Source: a virus (Duplodnaviria > Caudoviricetes). From it: a stretch of 64,000 nucleotides of DNA. The DNA is taken from the IMG/VR virus record IMGVR_UViG_3300032295_000548, positions 75,447 to 139,446 of that record. The stretch is one strand, 5' to 3'. This document shows positions 5,567-17,539 of the stretch, in pieces. The notes beneath the pieces are model-generated. The model had not been told where the DNA came from, ran no database searches, and saw nothing but the letters and a program-made list of their open reading frames with translations. The position numbers and the translations under genes were made by a program. How positions within the stretch are numbered: the first letter of the stretch is position 1; each line of letters begins with the position of its first letter.

Positions 5567-8500
5567 ATGCTAAGAGATGTTTTTTATTTCGGAAATAAAC
5601 CTAATGTTCACCCAAGAGAGCAACATGCAACAAGTTTAACAGACGCTAGAAGAAAAGCGTCAACAGAACATTTTTGGATTATTAACGAGTTCTGCGACTA
5701 TACTAATTTTGATTGGGATTTTGATTTTGAATTCCTACCAGACGCAGACGTATGGGCAGAAGAACACAACAACGTATGGCCTAGCTATCATCAAAAGGAT
5801 AGCGGTACATGGCTATGTCCAAAGAAACTAAGTGACGTTATTGTTTATCGTGCAGATGTTGATTCACTGAAACGAAAGAATAGCATCAATGACAACTGGA
5901 AGTTGTTAGATAATATTGATGTTACTAAGTGGGACTTTAGTTGGCATCCTGATCCAAGTGACCCTCCCTACATTTATAAGTGGGGTTCAAAGTATGCACC
6001 TGTTGAATTAAAATCGTGCATTGAATATCATGCTCCGGACGCTACTCAAATAAAATACATGAACACTACAGTAGAATTGCTTCCTAATTGGGATTGCATT
6101 GTAGAGGTTCAGAAAGTAAATTACAATCATTGGGATATGAGTTGGAGACCAGACCCACTCGATCCTCCCTTCATTTACGTATGGGGTAACAAATACATTG
6201 ATGGACGTTTACGTTCAACACTAGAGTATCATGTGCCTGGAGCTACTGAAAAGAAATACATGAATGAGTTAGTACCTGTACTTCCTGAATGGGATCGTTG
6301 GGTACTAATACATGACATTGACAAAACATCATTTGACTTCTCTTGGAGACCAGATCCAAGAGAGCCTGATTTTATATATGTGTTTGGTAATGAACAATAT
6401 GAAGGTGGTGTAATGCCTACGATTGAATATCGTATGCCTGATGCTACTGAGAGAAAATATCTTCATGATATGAAGGCTAGACTTTCTCCTCATCCTGAAA
6501 AATTCGAACACTTAGAGAAAGCAGATAATATTGATTACAGTTGGGTTCCAGACCCAACTGCACCTCCTTATATCTATGTTTGGGGCAATCAATGGAACAA
6601 GCCAGAAGATAAGATTAGTATTCAATACGTAGTTGAAGGTGCAACAGAATACAAATACATGGAAGAACGTTCAAAACGTAAACCATGCATGGATAATTGG
6701 GAAGTACCTGATGATGTTGATACTACTGGATTTGATTTTTCTTGGGAACCTAGTCCTGCTGATCCTGCATACATCTATGAGTTTGGTACTCAGTGGCAAA
6801 AGACAGGTGGACCTCGTTATGTAGTAGAAGGTGCCACAGAAATCAAATATGTAAGTACAATGAAAGTAACTAAGTTAGCAGACAAATCTAAGTTTGCTAT
6901 CTTAGGCAATTTAAAAATTGCTAACTTTGATTATTCATGGCATCCTGACAGCACAGAAGAACCATACATTTATGTCTTTGGTAATAACTTCTATCCGGGC
7001 GAAATTATGCCCACAATTGAATATGCAATGTCAGGCGCTACTAAAATCAAATATGTAGAAAACGCAGTTGCAACATTAGGTATTGATAAAATTAATTGGG
7101 AAGTACCCAACAATGTTGATGCGTCATCGGTAGATTTTAGTTGGAAGCCTAATCCTAAAGACCCTCCCTACATCTATCAGTATGGTACACAACATCAAAA
7201 ATCAGGAGGACCTCGTTACGTAGTTCCTGAGGCAACTGAAGTAAAGTATGTTGATGTAAAAGCTAAAGCACTGCCACAACAAGACAAATTTACAGTGTTA
7301 GATGGTATCGTAGTTGACGAGTTTGATTACTCATGGCATCCAGATGATACCGAAGAAGCGTACATCTATCAATTCGGAAATAATCAGTATCCTGCTGAAA
7401 TTATGCCCACTGTTGAGTATGCAATGCCTGGTGCTACTCAGATCAAATATGTACACGAAGTAGTAGCCAAGCTTGGTGTTGATATGACTAACTGGACAAC
7501 ACCTGATAACATTGATGCTACTGGTTTTGATTATAGTTGGAAGCCAAATCCCAAAGACCCCGCTTATATCTATGAGTTTGGTACTCAATGGCAAAAGACA
7601 GGTGGACCTCGTTACTTAGTAGAGGGCGCTGATGAAGTTAAGTATGTAACTACTCAAAGTGTTAAGGTTTTACCTACAACAGACAACTGGACTATTCCTA
7701 CTAATTGCGATGTAACTGGCTTTGACTTTAGCTGGCATCCAGATGCAACTAGCCCACCGTATATCTATCACTTTGCTACTCAATGGGCATTGACAGGTGG
7801 ACCTGTATATACAATGGATGGTGCTACTGAAATCAAGTACGTAGAACATCCAAGTGCAGTTGCACTTCCTAATCGTGATAACTGGGAAATACCCAAACAC
7901 ATAGATAGTGATGCGTTTGACTTCTCATGGCATCCATACGTAGAAGATCAACCTTACGTTTATATCTTTGGCACACAACATCAAAAGACAGGTGGACCTA
8001 AGTACATAACACCCGGTGTAATACCTACAAGCCCAGTCAAATATATTGACACACGTATCATACGTGCGATACGTAAACCTAGCAAGAAAAACTTTGCAGT
8101 ATTAAACAATTACAAAATTAAAGATTTTGATTGGTCATGGCATCCAGACGAAACCGACGAGCCATACATCTATGTGTTTGGTAATACTCAGTATCCTGCT
8201 GAAATCATGCCGACTATTGAGTACGTAGTTCCTGGAGCAACACAGATTAAGTATGTGACTGATGTTGTAGCAACATTAGACATTGACATGGCAAATTGGG
8301 AAGTTTCTAACAATACAGATGTAAGTAGTTTTGACTTTAGTTGGAAACCTAACCCTAAAGACCCACCTTTCATATATCAATTTGGTACTCAACATCAAAA
8401 GACAGGTGGACCTCGTTACGTAGTGGCTGATGCAGATGAAGTAAAGTATGTGACTACTCAACAAGCAGTAGCACTACCTACTACTGAAAATTGGACTGTG

Positions 8501-11500
8501 CCCAATTATGTAGACACATCAGGATTCGATTTTAGTTGGCATCCAGATGACACAAGCCCTCCATATATCTATCACTTTGCTACTCAGTGGGCACTGACAG
8601 GTGGTCCTGTGTATACAGTACAAGGTGCTAATGAAACAAAGTATTTGGAAGAACCATGTGCAGTTGCTTTGGAGAATAAAGAAAACTGGGAAATACCTAA
8701 AGATATCGATGAAGCTTTATTTGACTTCTCATGGCATCCATACGTGGAAGATCAGCCTTATGTATATGTGTTTGGTACGCAACATCAAAAGACAGGCGGA
8801 CCTAAGTACGTAACACCAGGTGTTATCCCTTCAAGCCCAATCAAATACATTGACACACGTATTCTTAAAGCAGTAAAGAAGCCTAGTAAGAAAAACTTTG
8901 CAATACTGAATAACTACAAGATTAAAGATTTTGATTGGTCATGGCATCCAGACGAAACCGACGAGCCATACATCTATGTGTTTGGTAACAATCAATACTC
9001 GGCTGAGATTATGCCTACGATTGAGTACGTTGTGCCGGGCGCAAAGCAGATCAAATACGTCAGTGATGTTATAGCAACGTTAGATGTTGACATGACTAAC
9101 TGGGAAATTCCCGATAACATTGATGCTGAAGGCTTTGACTTTAGTTGGAAACCTAATCCTAAAGACCCGCCTTTCATATATCAATTTGGTACTCAATGGC
9201 AAAAGACAGGCGGCCCTCGCTATGTTGTGCCAGGTGCTGACGAAGTAAAGTATGTAACTACTCAACAAGTTAAATCATTGTCATCAATGACCAATTGGAC
9301 TATTCCAACGCATATTGATACAACTGGATTTGATTTTAGTTGGCACCCGGATGACACAAGCCCTCCTTATATCTATCACTTTGCCACTCAATGGGCACTG
9401 ACAGGTGGACCTGTATACACTGTTGAGGGTGCAACGGAAACAAAATACTTAGAAGAACCTAGTGCAATTGCATTAGTAAATAAAGAAAATTGGGAAATAC
9501 CTTCTGACATTGATGATAGTGAGTTTGATTTTTCTTGGCATCCATATGTAGAAGATCAGCCTTATGTGTATGTCTTTGGTACTCAATGGCAAAAGACTGG
9601 TGGACCTAAGTACATAACACCTGGTGTTATTCCTTCAAGTCCTATCAAGTATATTGATACACGTATTCTTAAGGCTAAGAAATTGGCTAATAAAAAGAAC
9701 TTTGCCATACTCAATAATTATAAGATTAAAGATTTTGATTGGTCATGGCATCCAGACGAAACTGATGAGCCATATATCTATGTGTTCGGTAACAATCAAT
9801 ACTCGGCTGAGATTATGCCAACTATTGAATATACAGTTCCGGGTGCAAAACAAATCAAGTACGTACATGATGTAGTAGCAACGTTAGATGTTGACATGTC
9901 AAATTGGGAAGTGCCTAAGAATGTAGATTCTACTGGATTTGACTTCAGTTGGAAACCTAACCCTAAAGATCCTGCATATATCTATGAGTTTGGTACTCAG
10001 TGGCAAAAGACAGGTGGCCCTCGCTATGTTGTGCCTGACGCAGAAGAAGTTAAGTACGTATCTACACAACAAGTCAAAGTACTTGCTAATCATGACAATT
10101 GGACTATACCTCCTAACATCGATGTTAGTGATTTTGATTTTAGCTGGCACCCTGATGCTACAAGTCCACCATATATCTATCACTTTGCCACTCAGTGGGC
10201 ATTGAGCGGTGGCCCGATCTACAAGATGGATAAGGCTATTGCTACTAAGTATATGGATCAGCCTGTTGCTAAAGCATTGCCTAATAAAACTAATTGGGAG
10301 ATACCGGATGATATTGATGCAGTAGATTTTGATTTCTCATGGCATCCGTATGTTGAAGATGATCCGTTTGTTTATCAGTTCGGTACTCAATGGCAAAAGA
10401 CAGGTGGACCTCGTTATGTCACACCGGGTGCAAAGAGAAGTTTACCAGTCAAGTACATTGACACTCGTATTCTTAAATCTAAAAAGTTACCTAACAAAGA
10501 TAAGTTTACTGTATTAAACAATTTAACAATTGCATCGTTTGATTGGTCATGGCATCCAGATGAGACTGACGGTGAATTTGTATATGTGTTTGGCAACACA
10601 CAGTATCCTGCTGAAGTTATGCCTACGATTGAATATCGTTCAAGTCCCTACGCAGAAAAGATAAAGTATATCAACGATTTTAAGGCTGTACTAGCAACGG
10701 ATCTTAAGGATTGGGACATACCTACTAACATTGATGTTAGTGAGTTTGATTTTAGTTGGAAACCAAATCCAAATGACCCTCCATTCATTTATCAGTTCGG
10801 TACTCAATGGCAAAAGACAGGAGGCCCTCGTTATAAAGTAGAAGGCGCAACCGAAGTCAAATATGTTGAAGGGTCTAAAGCAAAAGCAATTGCTAGTAAA
10901 AAACAATGGATAGTACCGACAACTATTGATAGTGCAAACTTTGACTACAGTTGGCATCCAGACGAAACTGAAGAACTTTACGTTTATCAATTTGGTACTC
11001 AATGGCAAAAGACAGGTGGCCCTCGTTATATAACGTCTGGATCAACTAGTGATACTCCTGTAAAATACTGTGATGATGTTAAAGCAAGACAATTGCCTAA
11101 CAAAAAGAATTTTAACTGTTTAGTAGAGCATGAGATAAAAGACTTTGACTATTCATGGCATCCAGATGATACTGATAAGCCATACATTTATGTGTTTGGT
11201 AATAAACAGTATTCTGCTGAAATTATGCCTACAATAGAATATAAAGTGGCAGGGGCAGTTCAGGTCAAGTACGTACATGATGTTGTAGCTACACTGAACA
11301 ACAACAAAAAAAACTGGGAGATACCTAAAGATATCACTACTGAGAGTTTTGACTTTAGCTGGTTGCCTCACCCTAAGGATCCTCCTTATGTATATCAATT
11401 TGGTACACAACATCAAAAGACAGGTGGACCTCGTTATGTAGTTCCTACAGCTACTGATATAAAATACATCGATGGCTTGGTTGCTAAACGCAAACAAGCT

Positions 11501-13708
11501 ATGACCAACTGGGTAGTACCTGAAGGAGTTGATGTATCTAATTTTGATTTTAGTTGGCATCCTGATGAACTAGCACCACCGTACATTTATCAGTTCGGTA
11601 CAGTTGCTGACGACAAAGACGGTCCTAAATATGTTCCATCTATCAATAACGGTGAAGTAGTATTCAAGCAAAGAATAAGCAAACCAATACAAGATGACAT
11701 AATCGAAGAAGTTTTCATTGGACAATACTATATTGAGACTACACTAGAAGATTTGGTTAACAAACACCCTGATGAAATTTTCTGGGCATTGAATTCTAGT
11801 ATTGATTACACAAACTTTGACTTCACTTGGAGGCCTGAGATTATTCATATTGCATGGGAATCTTCATACGTTAATGTATTTGGTTCTCCTGACAGTCCAT
11901 TGACACAAACATACTTTGTCAATGCAAAATCATACTTGGCTGGAAATAAAGACTTTAAGTTTGTTGAGAACGTAAAATTAAGTGAAGAATACCTATCAAC
12001 TCTTTTTGTTAAGCCTGACATGTTTTTTGTTGACAGAGGAAACAGTGAATCATCTGCAAGATTTGAAATGCTGAAAACTAAGTTTGGAAACATTCAAAAG
12101 ACACGATATCTAAACAGTTGGGTCGATACCATCAACCGTTGTATCAATCGTAGTACAACTGAATTATGCTGGATACTGAACAGTGAATTAGATTACTCTG
12201 ATTTTGACTTTAACTATTATCCTAACCCTTGGCAGATGAAGATGGTTCATGTGTTTGGTACTCAATGGAGTCATTGGGGAACTACGTTCATGGTTAATCG
12301 TGAAGCATTCTCTACTGACACCAAGTACATTAAGATTATAGAACACTTGAGTAATCTTAACTTTGTCAAGACTCGTACTGCAAAGGCAACAAATGTCTTG
12401 TATGACGTATACTACATAGATCATGGCAACGCTACTAACTTGCCAAACGCAAATGTTGTACCATATGATACTGATTATCTAACTACATTTAAGAACATAC
12501 TATCTAAGTTGCCTGAAAAGAAAGAGCATTACATTTGGATAGCAAGTACAGTGTGTGATTATGACAGTTTTGATTTCACGTACATTTGTGATCCATTCGC
12601 ACGTGAACAATTGCATGTGTTCCCAAGTAGCAGTCAGAAGTTTGGTGATACATTTTTAGTGAATGTGAACAAGTTACGTGAGTTAGTTAGTGATATGGAG
12701 TCATTGAAAGACTATGACAAAATTAACTTCAACCAACATCAGCGTACTAAACGTTTGACCCCTCCTACAATTGTTACAGAGTTTGATTCTCATGTTGCTA
12801 CTGTAATGCAAGATTTTGATTTCCCCTACGCTGTATTTGTCACTGAGGATAACAAAGATATAGTTGCAGTTGAAGAAGAACCAATGAGTCTATGGGATCA
12901 AGAATCTAAAAACATTCTTGTTACCAGTACTGGTGGCACACGTATCATCGTTCCAAAAGAAGCAAAGCAATATGTTGAGACACAGTTGTATGACTATCCG
13001 TACATCAAAACTGCGCCTCGTTTAGCTAAGAGTAATCCATTAGACATTGTTTACTTGAGCAATGGTGAAAGTTGTGCAGATGAAAATTATGAACATCTAT
13101 TGAAAGCGACAAAGGGTCTTCCTAACAAAATCGTTCGTGTAGATGGTGTTAATGGTCGTGTTGAAGCATATCATGCCGCGGCAAAAGCAAGTAACACGCC
13201 TTGGATGTTCACTGTGTTTGCGAAATTGAAAGTCAACACTAAGTTTGACTTTAACTGGCAACCAGATAGACTGCAAATTCCTAAGCACTATATGTTCTTA
13301 GCAAAGAACCCTGTCAATGGATTAATTTATGGTCACCAAGGTATGATTGCGTACAACAAAGAAATGACATTGAATAATCCAGGTTACGGTCTAGACTTTA
13401 CATTAGATAGTCCTCACGAAACTATTGAATTGTTATCAGGTATAGCAACATACAACACAGACGAATGGTCAACATGGCGTACTGCATTCCGTGAAGTTAT
13501 CAAGTTGAAGAAAGAAAATTCTGAAATTAGCTTGAAGCGTTTAGAAGCATGGATGACTAAAGCTGAAGGTGATTTTGCAGAATATTCGATAGACGGTGCT
13601 ATAGATGGTATCGCATACTACAATGAAGTAGAAGGCAAAACAGATAAACTACGCTTGAGTTACGAATGGGCGTGGTTGCGTGAAAGATTTGACAGGAAGC
13701 ACAAGTGA
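5567..13708 (+). CDS. 2713-aa protein with about 29 tandem ~67-aa FDFSWxP repeats flanked by degenerate glycosyltransferase-like domains
   Basis: Repeats counted in the translation; C-terminus DIVYLSNGE...RVDGVNGR..AYHAAA...KNPVNGLIYG...WRTAFRE resembles phage GT-A-like proteins. Confidence 0.85.
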   Translation: MLRDVFYFGNKPNVHPREQHATSLTDARRKASTEHFWIINEFCDYTNFDWDFDFEFLPDADVWAEEHNNVWPSYHQKDSGTWLCPKKLSDVIVYRADVDSLKRKNSINDNWKLLDNIDVTKWDFSWHPDPSDPPYIYKWGSKYAPVELKSCIEYHAPDATQIKYMNTTVELLPNWDCIVEVQKVNYNHWDMSWRPDPLDPPFIYVWGNKYIDGRLRSTLEYHVPGATEKKYMNELVPVLPEWDRWVLIHDIDKTSFDFSWRPDPREPDFIYVFGNEQYEGGVMPTIEYRMPDATERKYLHDMKARLSPHPEKFEHLEKADNIDYSWVPDPTAPPYIYVWGNQWNKPEDKISIQYVVEGATEYKYMEERSKRKPCMDNWEVPDDVDTTGFDFSWEPSPADPAYIYEFGTQWQKTGGPRYVVEGATEIKYVSTMKVTKLADKSKFAILGNLKIANFDYSWHPDSTEEPYIYVFGNNFYPGEIMPTIEYAMSGATKIKYVENAVATLGIDKINWEVPNNVDASSVDFSWKPNPKDPPYIYQYGTQHQKSGGPRYVVPEATEVKYVDVKAKALPQQDKFTVLDGIVVDEFDYSWHPDDTEEAYIYQFGNNQYPAEIMPTVEYAMPGATQIKYVHEVVAKLGVDMTNWTTPDNIDATGFDYSWKPNPKDPAYIYEFGTQWQKTGGPRYLVEGADEVKYVTTQSVKVLPTTDNWTIPTNCDVTGFDFSWHPDATSPPYIYHFATQWALTGGPVYTMDGATEIKYVEHPSAVALPNRDNWEIPKHIDSDAFDFSWHPYVEDQPYVYIFGTQHQKTGGPKYITPGVIPTSPVKYIDTRIIRAIRKPSKKNFAVLNNYKIKDFDWSWHPDETDEPYIYVFGNTQYPAEIMPTIEYVVPGATQIKYVTDVVATLDIDMANWEVSNNTDVSSFDFSWKPNPKDPPFIYQFGTQHQKTGGPRYVVADADEVKYVTTQQAVALPTTENWTVPNYVDTSGFDFSWHPDDTSPPYIYHFATQWALTGGPVYTVQGANETKYLEEPCAVALENKENWEIPKDIDEALFDFSWHPYVEDQPYVYVFGTQHQKTGGPKYVTPGVIPSSPIKYIDTRILKAVKKPSKKNFAILNNYKIKDFDWSWHPDETDEPYIYVFGNNQYSAEIMPTIEYVVPGAKQIKYVSDVIATLDVDMTNWEIPDNIDAEGFDFSWKPNPKDPPFIYQFGTQWQKTGGPRYVVPGADEVKYVTTQQVKSLSSMTNWTIPTHIDTTGFDFSWHPDDTSPPYIYHFATQWALTGGPVYTVEGATETKYLEEPSAIALVNKENWEIPSDIDDSEFDFSWHPYVEDQPYVYVFGTQWQKTGGPKYITPGVIPSSPIKYIDTRILKAKKLANKKNFAILNNYKIKDFDWSWHPDETDEPYIYVFGNNQYSAEIMPTIEYTVPGAKQIKYVHDVVATLDVDMSNWEVPKNVDSTGFDFSWKPNPKDPAYIYEFGTQWQKTGGPRYVVPDAEEVKYVSTQQVKVLANHDNWTIPPNIDVSDFDFSWHPDATSPPYIYHFATQWALSGGPIYKMDKAIATKYMDQPVAKALPNKTNWEIPDDIDAVDFDFSWHPYVEDDPFVYQFGTQWQKTGGPRYVTPGAKRSLPVKYIDTRILKSKKLPNKDKFTVLNNLTIASFDWSWHPDETDGEFVYVFGNTQYPAEVMPTIEYRSSPYAEKIKYINDFKAVLATDLKDWDIPTNIDVSEFDFSWKPNPNDPPFIYQFGTQWQKTGGPRYKVEGATEVKYVEGSKAKAIASKKQWIVPTTIDSANFDYSWHPDETEELYVYQFGTQWQKTGGPRYITSGSTSDTPVKYCDDVKARQLPNKKNFNCLVEHEIKDFDYSWHPDDTDKPYIYVFGNKQYSAEIMPTIEYKVAGAVQVKYVHDVVATLNNNKKNWEIPKDITTESFDFSWLPHPKDPPYVYQFGTQHQKTGGPRYVVPTATDIKYIDGLVAKRKQAMTNWVVPEGVDVSNFDFSWHPDELAPPYIYQFGTVADDKDGPKYVPSINNGEVVFKQRISKPIQDDIIEEVFIGQYYIETTLEDLVNKHPDEIFWALNSSIDYTNFDFTWRPEIIHIAWESSYVNVFGSPDSPLTQTYFVNAKSYLAGNKDFKFVENVKLSEEYLSTLFVKPDMFFVDRGNSESSARFEMLKTKFGNIQKTRYLNSWVDTINRCINRSTTELCWILNSELDYSDFDFNYYPNPWQMKMVHVFGTQWSHWGTTFMVNREAFSTDTKYIKIIEHLSNLNFVKTRTAKATNVLYDVYYIDHGNATNLPNANVVPYDTDYLTTFKNILSKLPEKKEHYIWIASTVCDYDSFDFTYICDPFAREQLHVFPSSSQKFGDTFLVNVNKLRELVSDMESLKDYDKINFNQHQRTKRLTPPTIVTEFDSHVATVMQDFDFPYAVFVTEDNKDIVAVEEEPMSLWDQESKNILVTSTGGTRIIVPKEAKQYVETQLYDYPYIKTAPRLAKSNPLDIVYLSNGESCADENYEHLLKATKGLPNKIVRVDGVNGRVEAYHAAAKASNTPWMFTVFAKLKVNTKFDFNWQPDRLQIPKHYMFLAKNPVNGLIYGHQGMIAYNKEMTLNNPGYGLDFTLDSPHETIELLSGIATYNTDEWSTWRTAFREVIKLKKENSEISLKRLEAWMTKAEGDFAEYSIDGAIDGIAYYNEVEGKTDKLRLSYEWAWLRERFDRKHK
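7337..10600 (+). repeat. Higher-order intragenic repeat with an exact 804-nt (268-aa) period made of four unit types
   Basis: The A-type CATCCAGA(C/T)GA motif recurs at 7337, 8141, 8945, 9749 and 10553. Confidence 0.95.
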
Positions 13709-14760: not shown

Positions 14761-15790
14761 AAATTTAAACTACATTGGTCATAACCAATGGAATGGCCTT
14801 AACTTTCAAAATTTTTATGAGAAAGTGATTAACGGCAACTATGACAAAGTAATATTATTTTCACAGAATGAGTGGGCACATCACCATCACAATCCTGAAT
14901 ATTTTCCTTTGCTACAAGAGCATATGAAAAGAATAGGTAAGCCCCTACATATCATTACTTCGGCACATAAACATTTGTACCCAGTTGAACTAGAAAATAC
15001 TCAAGTACATTGGTATGATACATATTGGATGTGCAAAACGTATGGACAATTATTACACGTTAGTAAAGGTAATAAGATATCAATTGATCCCTACGAAACG
15101 GTAGATTACAAATATCATTATCTTTCTATGAACCACAGGCCCCATCTGCATCGTTGTTTGTTAATTGATTTGTTGGCTAAACACGATTTGATGAAGTATG
15201 GTGCTATATCATTACACAATGCACCAGTACCTGAACTGTATCAATGGAAATATTTTGATTACAAACCACTAATATTAGATCAACAATACTCCACTGAAAA
15301 AAATTATAACCTTGTACCTGACCAATATTATGAATCGTTCGTACAACTGATAAGTGAAGCTTCAGGTGATACTATAATGATGTCTGAAAAAACAGCAATA
15401 CCGTTATTGTTAGGTAAACCTTTCTTAGTTGCTAGTCAGATGCATTTCCATAAGTTCTTGAAAGGACTAGGATTTGAGCTATATGATGAAATATTTGACT
15501 ACAGTTTTGATGACGAACCGAACGAAGAAAAAAGATATGAAATGCTTTTGGAAAACTTCAAGAGATTGTGTCAAATACCGTTAAACGAACTAACTCAATT
15601 ACAACAACGCATAGCTAACAAAGTATTGTTTAATAAGAAACATGCCAAATCATTGGTATTTGACACTACAACATGCCCAGAACTAGCTATGGAAGTTATC
15701 AATTACTACAAAGATACCGGAACTATCATAGACAAGCACTTGATAGATGACTACGAAAACTGTATAATGTACAAAGACCATGAGATTTGA
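14750..15790 (+). CDS. GT10-like putative glycosyltransferase, paralog 2
   Basis: Full-length similarity to the 13705 ORF (HNQW, QNEW, NHRP..HR, SEKT, GKPFLVAS, GFELYDEIFDYSFD). Confidence 0.6.
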   Translation: MSGKNLNYIGHNQWNGLNFQNFYEKVINGNYDKVILFSQNEWAHHHHNPEYFPLLQEHMKRIGKPLHIITSAHKHLYPVELENTQVHWYDTYWMCKTYGQLLHVSKGNKISIDPYETVDYKYHYLSMNHRPHLHRCLLIDLLAKHDLMKYGAISLHNAPVPELYQWKYFDYKPLILDQQYSTEKNYNLVPDQYYESFVQLISEASGDTIMMSEKTAIPLLLGKPFLVASQMHFHKFLKGLGFELYDEIFDYSFDDEPNEEKRYEMLLENFKRLCQIPLNELTQLQQRIANKVLFNKKHAKSLVFDTTTCPELAMEVINYYKDTGTIIDKHLIDDYENCIMYKDHEI

Positions 15791-15815
15791 CATAAATACT
15801 GAAAGGTGATACAAT
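15787..15815 (+). promoter_or_regulatory. sigma70-type promoter TTGACA-17-TACAAT
   Basis: Hexamers with 17-nt spacing; the -35 overlaps the upstream TGA stop; TAAATA lies in the spacer. Confidence 0.7.
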
Positions 15816-15822
15816 CATGATT

Positions 15823-15930
15823 ATGAATAAAGTTTTGGCACTAAAAGGATTACTAGCACTATTGGGCTTATACATAGCCTATAAGTTAGGACTTGAACTT
15901 TGGTGTATTGCGTATGGATTGTTAATGTAA
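15823..15930 (+). CDS. 35-aa hydrophobic peptide MNKVLALKGLLALLGLYIAYKLGLELWCIAYGLLM
   Basis: Read from the sequence; starts 7 nt after the -10 box and fills the gap. Confidence 0.5.
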   Translation: MNKVLALKGLLALLGLYIAYKLGLELWCIAYGLLM

Positions 15931-15939
15931 GGAGCGTAT

Positions 15940-16164
15940 ATGAAACGTCTTATTGGTGCTATTGTTGTTTTGGGTAGTCTTGTTGGTTGTGCAACACCTC
16001 AGCAAACTGCCGCACTGACAGGTGCAGTAGTCGGAGCCGCGGTAATGAGTTCAGTGTACGCACACCCTGCACCTAGACCGTTGCATTGCTACACCACTAG
16101 AAGTGTAATTGGATATGATATCTATAACCGTCCGTTGTACCAACATCGTCAGGTTTGTAGATAA
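15940..16164 (+). CDS. Small lipoprotein
   Basis: SD AAGGAG; signal peptide with lipobox LVGC; glycine-zipper-like GAVVGAA. Confidence 0.7.
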   Translation: MKRLIGAIVVLGSLVGCATPQQTAALTGAVVGAAVMSSVYAHPAPRPLHCYTTRSVIGYDIYNRPLYQHRQVCR

Positions 16165-16167
16165 AAG

Positions 16168-16500
16168 TTAAGACTGTATGAAGTAGACAGAAAAGGATTC
16201 AAGACCCGGGGGCAGTTCCCGGCAGGTCCACCAAAAGGAGATATGATGAAGCCAGCTTATGTGATAGCAGTAGTACTATTAATAGGATTGATTTACTTTC
16301 ATGTCTATTTTTGATGGGCCTGACATAGATTTCGATTGGGTCAAGAGTATTGAAATGGACAGTCCGGCAATGTAGAAGCCGTTAGGATTGGGGTAACCCG
16401 GTCGAAGAAGCAAAACAAAGTAAACGCAAACGACTCACAGTTCGCATTAGCTGCCTAAACTCAGCTTAGGGTAAGACATACCTCGTAACAGAAACTCTAG
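16168..16500 (+). ncRNA. ssrA: Circularly permuted (two-piece) tmRNA; tag peptide ANDSQFALAA
   Basis: T-arm CCGGG-GGCAGTT-CCCGG and acceptor 3' strand CAGGTCC-A-CCA (16223-16233) come BEFORE the 5' strand GGGCCTG (16316-16322), with a G3.U70 pair; tag ORF 16426-16458; outer ends approximate. Confidence 0.92.
16246..16314 (+). CDS. Putative 22-aa transmembrane peptide in the tmRNA intervening segment (MKPAYVIAVVLLIGLIYFHVYF)
   Basis: SD AAGGAG 16235-16240, ATG 5 nt later, and the ORF fills the segment to 1 nt before the tmRNA G1. Confidence 0.5.
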   Translation: MKPAYVIAVVLLIGLIYFHVYF

Positions 16501-16524
16501 AAAGCCCACTTCGGTGGGCTTTTT
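16501..16524 (+). terminator. Intrinsic terminator after the tmRNA
   Basis: AAAGCCCAC-TTCG-GTGGGCTTT followed by a T tract. Confidence 0.9.
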
Positions 16525-16564: not shown

Positions 16565-16657
16565 TTACTTTATGAATTAATTTATTTGATAGGTTTTTAT
16601 CAAGTAAATATTATTCTAGCCTGTTGAAAGACAGGCTTTTTATTAAAGGAAAATTTT

Positions 16658-17539
16658 ATGAAGAAAATCGTAATGGCAACATTATTTATGGCAGCTACAG
16701 GTTTAGCTAGTGCTCAAGTATCCCTATCAGGAAAGGTCAGCGAGTTCGTTGATTCTTCTAAGGTGGCCGGCAACAAAAGCACTCAGTTGGTTACAGCACC
16801 AACTAGTAACTTTGCTTTGTCTGTCAATGAAAAATTGGGCGGTGGTCTAACTGCACGTGCTGTAGTCGAAACTTCACTAAGTGGTAACACCATTGATGGT
16901 GTTGGTACTAAGTTGGGTGATCGTCAAGGTACTGTAGGTCTGTCAAGCAAGCTTGGTAGCGTTGATCTAGGTCGCAATGTTCATAGCCATTTCTTAGCAA
17001 TCACAAACAACGATACTTTCAGTACATTGTTTGGTAGTGTTGCAGGTGATGTTCACAATCTACGTAATCTACGTTTAGGTGATGCAGTGTTCGTTAACGT
17101 AACTCCTGTTAAAAACTTAGCAGTTGCTTATGAGCGTTCACAAGTTGCTGTTGGCCAAGAGGCTACAGTAGTTGCAGGTTCTACTAAAGTAATGGGTGTG
17201 AATGCATCTGTTGCTCGTTTCGAACAAGGTACTGAAAAGAGTACTGTTGTTGGATTGAACACAACCATTCTAGGTAACAAGGTTACATATACTCATAGCG
17301 ATGACCAAGGTCTAGTAAAGAGTAAGGGCGACTTGGTTGGTGTTGCACGTGATTTTGGTGCTATCACTGCTAAGGCAAGCTATGGTACTACAAACACAGA
17401 CGTTAAAGCATATGCATTAGGTGCTGATTATAATTTCAGCAAGCGTACTGCATTGACTGTTGCATATCGCAATGTCAACAAGACAGGTTCAGCACATGAC
17501 GTTGAACAAGTAGGTGTAGGTTTGACACATCGTTTCTGA
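16658..17539 (+). CDS. Gram-negative general porin, betaproteobacterial type
   Basis: Signal peptide (ASA-Q), EKLGGGL, VGL...G...LGR, GADYNFSKRT, C-terminal GLTHRF with terminal Phe; strong SD. Confidence 0.9.
   Translation: MKKIVMATLFMAATGLASAQVSLSGKVSEFVDSSKVAGNKSTQLVTAPTSNFALSVNEKLGGGLTARAVVETSLSGNTIDGVGTKLGDRQGTVGLSSKLGSVDLGRNVHSHFLAITNNDTFSTLFGSVAGDVHNLRNLRLGDAVFVNVTPVKNLAVAYERSQVAVGQEATVVAGSTKVMGVNASVARFEQGTEKSTVVGLNTTILGNKVTYTHSDDQGLVKSKGDLVGVARDFGAITAKASYGTTNTDVKAYALGADYNFSKRTALTVAYRNVNKTGSAHDVEQVGVGLTHRF

Follow-up and report, generated by a model that had tools for sequence, protein, structure and literature searches.

The intervening segment (IVS) of the permuted tmRNA gene described here is probably a nested mini-cistron encoding a single-pass membrane peptide of 22 residues (23 from the first ATG), a reading to which we assign a probability of about 0.77. 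The gene lies on the plus strand of a 64,000-nucleotide stretch of viral DNA, hereafter called the window; coordinates refer to it unless another locus is named. The ORF inside the IVS is very probably a genuine gene for a small membrane peptide. In related phages the IVS slot commonly holds selected protein-coding genes and behaves as an exchangeable cassette site. Thus, the peptide is probably an accessory (moron-like) infection factor and not part of trans-translation.

The permuted tmRNA gene and its surroundings

The source record is a 139-kb IMG/VR virus, 40% complete by CheckV, and it is a large phage, as indicated by its large terminase, DnaB-like and other helicases and a UvsX-like recombinase. 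The Rfam model RF04321 (tmRNA_permuted) matches positions 16172-16458 over its full length (model positions 1-213) with 104.3 bits against a threshold of 47, and the alphaproteobacterial model RF01849 gives 55 bits; by these scores the tmRNA is of an alpha-like subtype. It is the single permuted tmRNA copy in the record. ARAGORN did not detect a tmRNA in the window, although Rfam detects one, and a blastn search of the tmRNA region against 50,697 GenBank phage records returned zero matches.

The gene is intact. As in other permuted tmRNA genes, the order is acceptor piece, IVS and coding piece, with an encoded CCA, a G3.U70 pair, an Ala-rich tag and an IVS expected to be removed on maturation. 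The acceptor piece (16172..16233), delimited from Rfam and sequence, comprises the pairing strand for the coding piece, a T-arm with the unusual loop GGCAGUU, the acceptor 3' strand (16223-16229) and the encoded ACCA, of which CCA occupies 16231-16233. The coding piece (16316..16458) begins at G1 (G16316) with the acceptor 5' strand GGGCCUG, so that 16316-16322 pairs with 16223-16229 in a 7-bp acceptor stem in which G3.U70 is G16318.U16227. The tag reading frame at 16426-16458 reads ANDSQFALAA and a stop, thus ending in LAA plus the stop codon.

A candidate sigma-70-type promoter at 15787..15815 (TTGACA, 17 nt, TACAAT with TG), which matches the consensus at 11 of 12 positions, is the nearest strong promoter-like site upstream of the tmRNA; a consensus scan of the plus strand from 15816 to 16172 found no comparable one. 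Two small envelope-protein ORFs lie between this site and the tmRNA, which may therefore be co-transcribed with both. The first is a hydrophobic ORF of 37 codons (15817-15930) and the second a lipoprotein-like ORF of 74 codons with an LVGC lipobox (15940-16164), both without a Pfam match. On the other side of the gene, a GC-rich hairpin resembling an intrinsic terminator (GCCCAC, UUCG loop, GUGGGC) with a T run was read from the sequence at 16501..16524; the pattern scan did not report this hairpin. Directly downstream of the tmRNA unit there is a complete porin gene of Gram-negative type with a signal peptide (16658-17539; Pfam Porin_4, E = 2e-18), which has its own promoter-like site at 16586-16614. 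The window also contains, at 5567-13708, an ORF of 2713 codons made of many aromatic-rich repeats (FDFSW...PYIY.FG).

A hydrophobic ORF fills the intervening segment

The IVS consists of the 82 nt between the encoded CCA and G1 (16234..16315) and is predicted not to be part of the mature two-piece tmRNA. A sequence-only reading of this DNA had described it as filled by AAGGAG, an ATG and a hydrophobic ORF of 22 amino acids, and both the sequence and the ORF list show that description to be correct to the base. The Shine-Dalgarno motif (SD) AAGGAG at 16235..16240 is followed by tandem ATGs at 16243 and 16246, to which its spacing is 2 nt and 5 nt, respectively. From 16246 the ORF has 22 codons and a TGA (16246..16314), and from the alternative start at 16243 it has 23; the TGA at 16312-16314 ends one base before G1. 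The 5' end of tmRNA is matured by RNase P, whose cleavage site is expected from the tRNA-like fold at 16315..16316, one base past the stop codon, and this closeness counts against a nested gene.

The best 15-residue hydropathy window of the peptide is 2.76. Searches of Pfam (E up to 1) and PHROGs gave zero matches for it, and no matches in Pfam and PHROGs for six other IVS membrane peptides. When the two ends of the IVS that form its closing stem were held fixed and the interior was dinucleotide-shuffled, the frame was open in 16% of trials. An open frame by itself can thus arise by chance, which would suit an incidental ORF: the IVS would be conserved as RNA only, as a processing hairpin or a regulatory RNA, and the hydrophobic frame would be a T-rich by-product. 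The tmRNA literature, in which IVSs are regarded as non-coding, agrees with such an explanation. However, only 0.16% of the open shuffled frames matched the real hydrophobicity in a 15-residue window, so that T-richness or composition alone does not explain the hydrophobic ORF. Moreover, the interior shows no RNA-fold signal relative to shuffles (z = 0.02). Frame +3 of the IVS is likewise stop-free in all four members of the peptide family described below, because the NUN codons of the hydrophobic frame make each +3 codon end in U; it has no start codon or SD.

Conservation of the ORF in related loci

Three other phage tmRNA genes carry the same cassette. One of them (L278) was found by degenerate back-translation of the peptide and the other two (L282 and L283) by a scan for the CCA-SD-start junction, and each has an 82-nt IVS with the same SD, a double ATG, 23 codons and TGA. 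A scan for SD-bearing acceptor ends with a variable T-arm revealed no loci beyond these three, and a family-specific scan of the viral collection found the peptide nowhere else; the family thus comprises four loci with three sequence variants only. The comparison that the sequence-only reading had proposed, of SD, frame and hydrophobicity in the IVSs of relatives, comes out in its favour, as all are conserved in L278, L282 and L283. Relatives without an ORF or SD, which it had counted against itself, do exist, since many phage IVSs have no ORF; but the cassette with SD and ORF is kept in these three loci.

The window and L278 differ at 3 of the 82 nt of the IVS, and all three differences are synonymous transitions at third codon positions, for which P (3/3 synonymous) is 0.013, or 0.043 if only transitions are considered. 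Their acceptor pieces show 6 differences in 62 positions, and upstream of the gene the two DNAs are unrelated. Two of the three changes also preserve predicted base pairs through G.U, as would be expected for an incidental ORF in a conserved RNA, and because of this the comparison is suggestive rather than clean as coding evidence. The L278 tmRNA has its own dedicated promoter-like site (TTGACA/TATAAT) directly upstream.

L282 and L283 are more distant. Their tmRNAs are of beta type with a canonical T-loop (RF01850, 93 and 120 bits), and their ORFs differ from each other by 4 synonymous and 4 conservative changes (dN/dS 0.29). With the window they share an N-terminal MMxPAYVI and a C-terminal HV(Y/F)F; 11 of 22 residues differ between the two subfamilies, with frame and length kept. 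The hydropathy window is 2.5-2.8 across the family and 2.5-2.7 in L282 and L283. Frame, length and hydrophobicity of the interior thus survive 18-20 substitutions, whereas in simulations with an equal number of substitutions the frame stayed open and equally hydrophobic in only 1.2-3.9% of trials. Between the subfamilies dN/dS is 0.6-0.9, which is usual for bare membrane helices, yet relaxed selection gives the same value. The IVSs of the window and L282/L283 are 76-78% identical and the acceptor pieces about 68%, so the IVS is no less conserved than the tmRNA around it. Over the first 33 nt of the IVS the identity among the four loci is 94-97%, which could be due to an RNA signal, again as an incidental ORF would allow. 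The interior, however, folds no better than shuffles and yet retains its coding properties, which argues against this explanation.

As the L282 and L283 tmRNAs are beta-type and that of the window is alpha-like, the cassette is common to different tmRNA subtypes. This suggests lateral exchange of IVSs between tmRNA genes or an unusually strong constraint. The cassette arms of L282 (5606-5687) and L283 (377-458) are identical to those of the window (16234-16315) despite the difference between beta-type genes and an alpha-like gene with the GGCAGUU loop.

The intervening segment as a gene slot in phages

Scanning for the alpha-type T-arm with its acceptor end yielded 120 viral loci, and a clade-specific scan yielded 8 viral and 26 metagenome loci; the extraction set comprised 115 unique phage and metagenome IVSs of 5-394 nt. 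A sense ATG ORF filling the IVS was present in 13 of the 15 unique IVSs of at least 150 nt, against 0 for the same test on the antisense strand. Between 100 and 149 nt there were 9 such ORFs in 23 unique IVSs, 8 of them with an SD, against 2 in antisense, the counts in both length classes being phylogenetically non-independent. As a control, 112 unique alphaproteobacterial IVSs were collected with the same pattern. Their median length is about 29 nt, and 0 of the 8 that reach at least 60 nt have an IVS-filling ORF; the sampled bacterial permuted tmRNAs thus have hairpin IVSs of ~29 nt, in contrast to the 82-nt ORF-bearing IVS of the window.

An SD within the first 12 nt of the IVS, and so inside the closing stem, predicts an ORF. 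Among IVSs of at least 60 nt an ORF was found in 16 of 17 with such an SD versus 12 of 59 without it (Fisher p = 4e-8), counts that are phylogenetically non-independent but span many families. Purifying selection on sister IVS ORFs is clear from the sequence comparisons: five homologous pairs gave dN/dS values of 0, 0.07, 0.12, 0.17 and 0.23, with the differences concentrated at third positions. One of the pairs, L123 and L139, belongs to the clade of the window and encodes a membrane peptide of 32 residues; these ORF-bearing relatives have the SD motif at the same position and spacing as the window. Both the association with the SD and the selection on sister ORFs speak against an incidental ORF, which, with the evidence above, we regard as improbable.

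The contents of the slot are diverse. By eye there are about 22 unrelated families of IVS ORFs, and 7 of 20 representatives have a membrane-like segment. One ORF matches Pfam DUF6356 (E = 5e-12), and PHROGs gave marginal matches only for the longer IVS proteins. The ORF-bearing genes keep 77-112 bits as full-length permuted tmRNAs. In the clade closest to the window the flanking tmRNA pieces are nearly identical and the IVS content varies, from no ORF to peptides of 23, 30, 32, 33 and 41 residues and proteins of 64, 101 and 122 residues; it is from these near-identical flanks with differing contents that the slot appears to be an exchangeable cassette site. Two sister phages (L132 and L272) encode a 23-residue membrane peptide with 3 synonymous and 4 hydrophobic-to-hydrophobic codon changes between them. 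Homology of the window peptide to that of L132 was considered, but the alignment is too short to demonstrate it.

Several individual loci illustrate the variety of the slot. The IVSs of L007 (1912-2253, 342 nt) and L151 (minus strand, 394 nt) have the first ~40 nt and the 3' arm in common, the shared start consisting of an SD, a short TTG-led mini-frame and a start reading MRIKEL, and they encode unrelated proteins of 101 and 122 residues; this pattern looks like cassette exchange within the slot. cmscan with RF04321 did not report L007, although both of its tmRNA pieces are nearly identical to those of the window. L141 (minus strand) has a 115-nt IVS with an in-frame Oxidored-like domain (PF09791, E = 7e-12). 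This IVS has no ATG of its own; the only in-frame ATG sits in the acceptor piece, and the frame continues through the T-arm and CCA and into the coding piece. In the cultured phage Melnitz (L279, MZ577097.1) the locus at 470-611 has a 142-nt IVS with GGAG, ATG and a frame of 54 codons. This frame extends into the coding piece. The annotation has no CDS at this place and skips the locus tags _87 and _88. The sister tmRNAs L108 and L111 have an extra insert of ~50 nt relative to the window, located in the coding piece about 75-125 nt after G1 and before the tag frame.

The closing stem and access to the start of the ORF

The sequence-only reading had also proposed that 16232-16246 pairs with 16299-16313 at 14 of 15 positions including G.U, and that this stem extends the acceptor stem and buries both the SD and the start of the ORF. 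The pairing was confirmed by the sequence and by minimum free energy (MFE) folds, with G16238/A16307 as the sole mismatch. The 5' arm (16232..16246) contains the SD and reaches both ATGs, and the 3' arm (16299..16313) covers the five final sense codons and the TG of the stop codon. In the MFE folds the closing stem stacks coaxially on the acceptor stem (z = -4.8 for 16223-16322), and the start of the ORF is indeed predicted to be buried: the pairing probability is 1.0 for the first ATG and at least 0.95 for 4 of the 6 SD bases, while G16237 reaches 0.66 and the mismatched G16238 about 0. That folding of the precursor is predicted to leave so little of the SD and start unpaired counts against a nested gene. 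The stem is rich in A-U and G.U pairs and has a predicted stability of about -9 kcal/mol. We also considered the whole IVS as one selected long hairpin, which was rejected, as only the arms contribute to the fold and the interior does not (z = 0.02).

The same stem is present in phages in general. We examined covariation in 82 unique phage IVSs of at least 40 nt, most of them without an ORF. IVS position i pairs with position -(5+i) in 94-100% of the 82 sequences for positions 2-9 and in 90% at position 10; there are several pair types per stem column, and shifted registers pair far less. The closing stem, of roughly 10 bp, is thus a conserved and covarying feature of the tmRNA precursor whether an ORF is present or absent. 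The ending TGAT (UGAU, facing ACCA) is found in 80 of the 115 phage and metagenome IVSs, and many IVS ORFs, including that of the window, take the UGA of the terminal UGAU as their stop codon. It appears that the stem is older and commoner than the ORFs and belongs to tmRNA maturation, and that the gene was fitted into it.

These data bear on the earlier proposal that translation and tmRNA folding or processing are mutually exclusive, making the precursor a regulatory switch that would, for example, sense free ribosomes or translation stress and release a toxin-like or regulatory peptide. Such a switch would be expected to have its SD and first ATG paired in the very helix that RNase P must recognise, as is predicted here, and with the stop and last codons in the 3' arm a ribosome that terminates there would sit over G1 and the acceptor 5' strand. 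Moreover, stems that contain an SD are weaker than those of ORF-less IVSs (median -6.2 versus -11.8 kcal/mol, p = 9e-5) and have more G.U pairs, which is the expected look of a tuned trade-off and a hint of one between translation and processing. The weakness may, however, merely follow from the purine-rich SD and the codons forced into the arms, and ribosome occlusion would delay processing and not prevent it. The stem is present and covarying in IVSs without any ORF, and of the 28 unique IVSs with an ORF, 12 lack an SD within their first 12 nt; several of these have an SD just beyond the stem, an arrangement seen in about a third of the ORF-bearing families. Since the slot also houses unrelated soluble proteins, no common regulatory logic is needed and the peptide is not a dedicated partner of tmRNA function. 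We therefore consider a regulatory switch unlikely, though worth keeping in view; it would elaborate the nested-gene explanation rather than replace it. One part of the proposal stands: with a conserved peptide ORF whose SD and start lie in a helix extending the acceptor stem, the same transcript is a messenger as well as the precursor of a stable RNA. The other part does not, as the stem was not built as a device around the ORF. The reading that we prefer is a nested accessory gene adapted to the processing helix and not a purpose-built switch.

Proposed expression and maturation

For the nested accessory gene we envisage a single precursor transcript, starting probably at the 15787 promoter, running through the two small envelope-protein genes and ending at the hairpin at 16501-16524. 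RNase P would cut one base past the stop codon of the ORF and 3' maturation would trim the acceptor piece to CCA, and in this way the IVS would be freed, much as tRNA punctuation releases mRNAs. With the SD and start placed in the 5' arm, and the stop and the codons before it in the 3' arm, initiation would need an open stem. Most likely the stem would be open during transcription, when the polymerase has yet to reach the 3' arm ~65 nt further on, or through breathing. A ribosome terminating at the TGA would occupy G1, and the acceptor stem would then fold later, so that translation and maturation plausibly compete on each precursor molecule.

The freed IVS might also have functions of its own. 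The peptide could be a membrane poison like those of type I toxin systems, the excised IVS mRNA being inactive through 5'-3' fold-back, as in hok mRNA, and activated by processing. Hok, TisB, Ibs and Fst are type I toxins, and the window peptide is in line with them in size and hydrophobicity; the released IVS would have paired 5' and 3' ends and a buried SD, as this scenario demands. However, a consensus scan of the minus strand in and around 16234-16315 found no promoter-like site, the stop codon would be lost to 3' trimming before the SD became free, the slot holds many proteins that are not toxin-like, and the peptide has no family match in Pfam or PHROGs. A toxin of this type is thus very improbable. 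We hold in similarly low regard the possibility that the excised IVS is a self-contained, tRNA-punctuated mini-mRNA whose ribosomes become substrate for the tmRNA of the same gene. On the unprocessed precursor the peptide would then terminate normally, whereas on the released IVS the stop would be reached with an almost empty mRNA channel, or slight 3' trimming would leave a non-stop end. If this were true, the amount of peptide made would reflect how well the phage tmRNA matures and works, and would be limited by it, which would amount to a built-in coupling of a ribosome-rescue RNA to a membrane effector.

Relation to known systems and implications

Other bacterial RNAs are known to combine two functions. 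Dual-function RNAs such as SgrS/SgrT, RNAIII/hld and SR1/SR1P provide a functional RNA and a small peptide from one transcript, and the same mature molecule does both jobs; in the window, by contrast, the coding part would be the segment that maturation throws away. Definition of message ends by cleavage at tRNA-like structures is known from mitochondrial tRNA punctuation.

Permuted two-piece tmRNA genes have been described, including those of aquatic phages (Rfam RF04321, RF01849, RF01850; PMC11915505; phage Melnitz, PMC9004378). The literature treats their IVS as a non-coding spacer, whereas that of the window is a probable cistron. By the definition in the current tmRNA database paper, the IVS is missing from mature tmRNA; a tRNA gene and a repetitive element are the only IVS contents named there (PMC11915505). 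In the literature searched, which did not fully cover the founding tmRNA papers, there was no report of protein-coding tmRNA IVSs. The nearest precedent is the S23p ORF in the 23S rRNA IVS of Coxiella burnetii, which likewise lies in a stem-closed segment excised from a stable-RNA precursor (PMC4990558). That segment is cut by RNase III, and its ORF has no good ribosome-binding site, is apparently untranslated in vivo and is decaying (PMC4990558). The phage tmRNA IVS ORFs, in contrast, have SDs, are under purifying selection as judged from the sister pairs, and are flanked by tRNA-like processing sites; the window ORF has no Pfam match to the S23p four-helix family at E up to 1. Group I introns of tmRNA genes likewise house protein genes, homing-endonuclease ORFs, in a segment that is later removed; these introns are located in the T-loop, self-splice and encode LAGLIDADG enzymes that mobilise the intron (PMC11915505). 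The IVS ORFs differ from these in being tiny, diverse and, as far as visible, not nucleases.

Few bacterial RNAs have been studied as well as tmRNA, and in its two-piece form the spacer has been treated as disposable. If phage spacers are routinely messengers, many small phage genes would have been missed by annotation: gene callers skip IVS ORFs, ARAGORN missed the window tmRNA itself and the Melnitz IVS ORF is unannotated. It would also mean that processing sites of a stable RNA can carve out an mRNA in bacteria. The slot would then be a natural, compact and exchangeable expression site with SD and stop built into the processing helix, where competition between translation and RNA maturation could be tested. 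Single-pass membrane peptides recur in 7 of the 20 ORF families examined and are candidates for new functions in phage infection.
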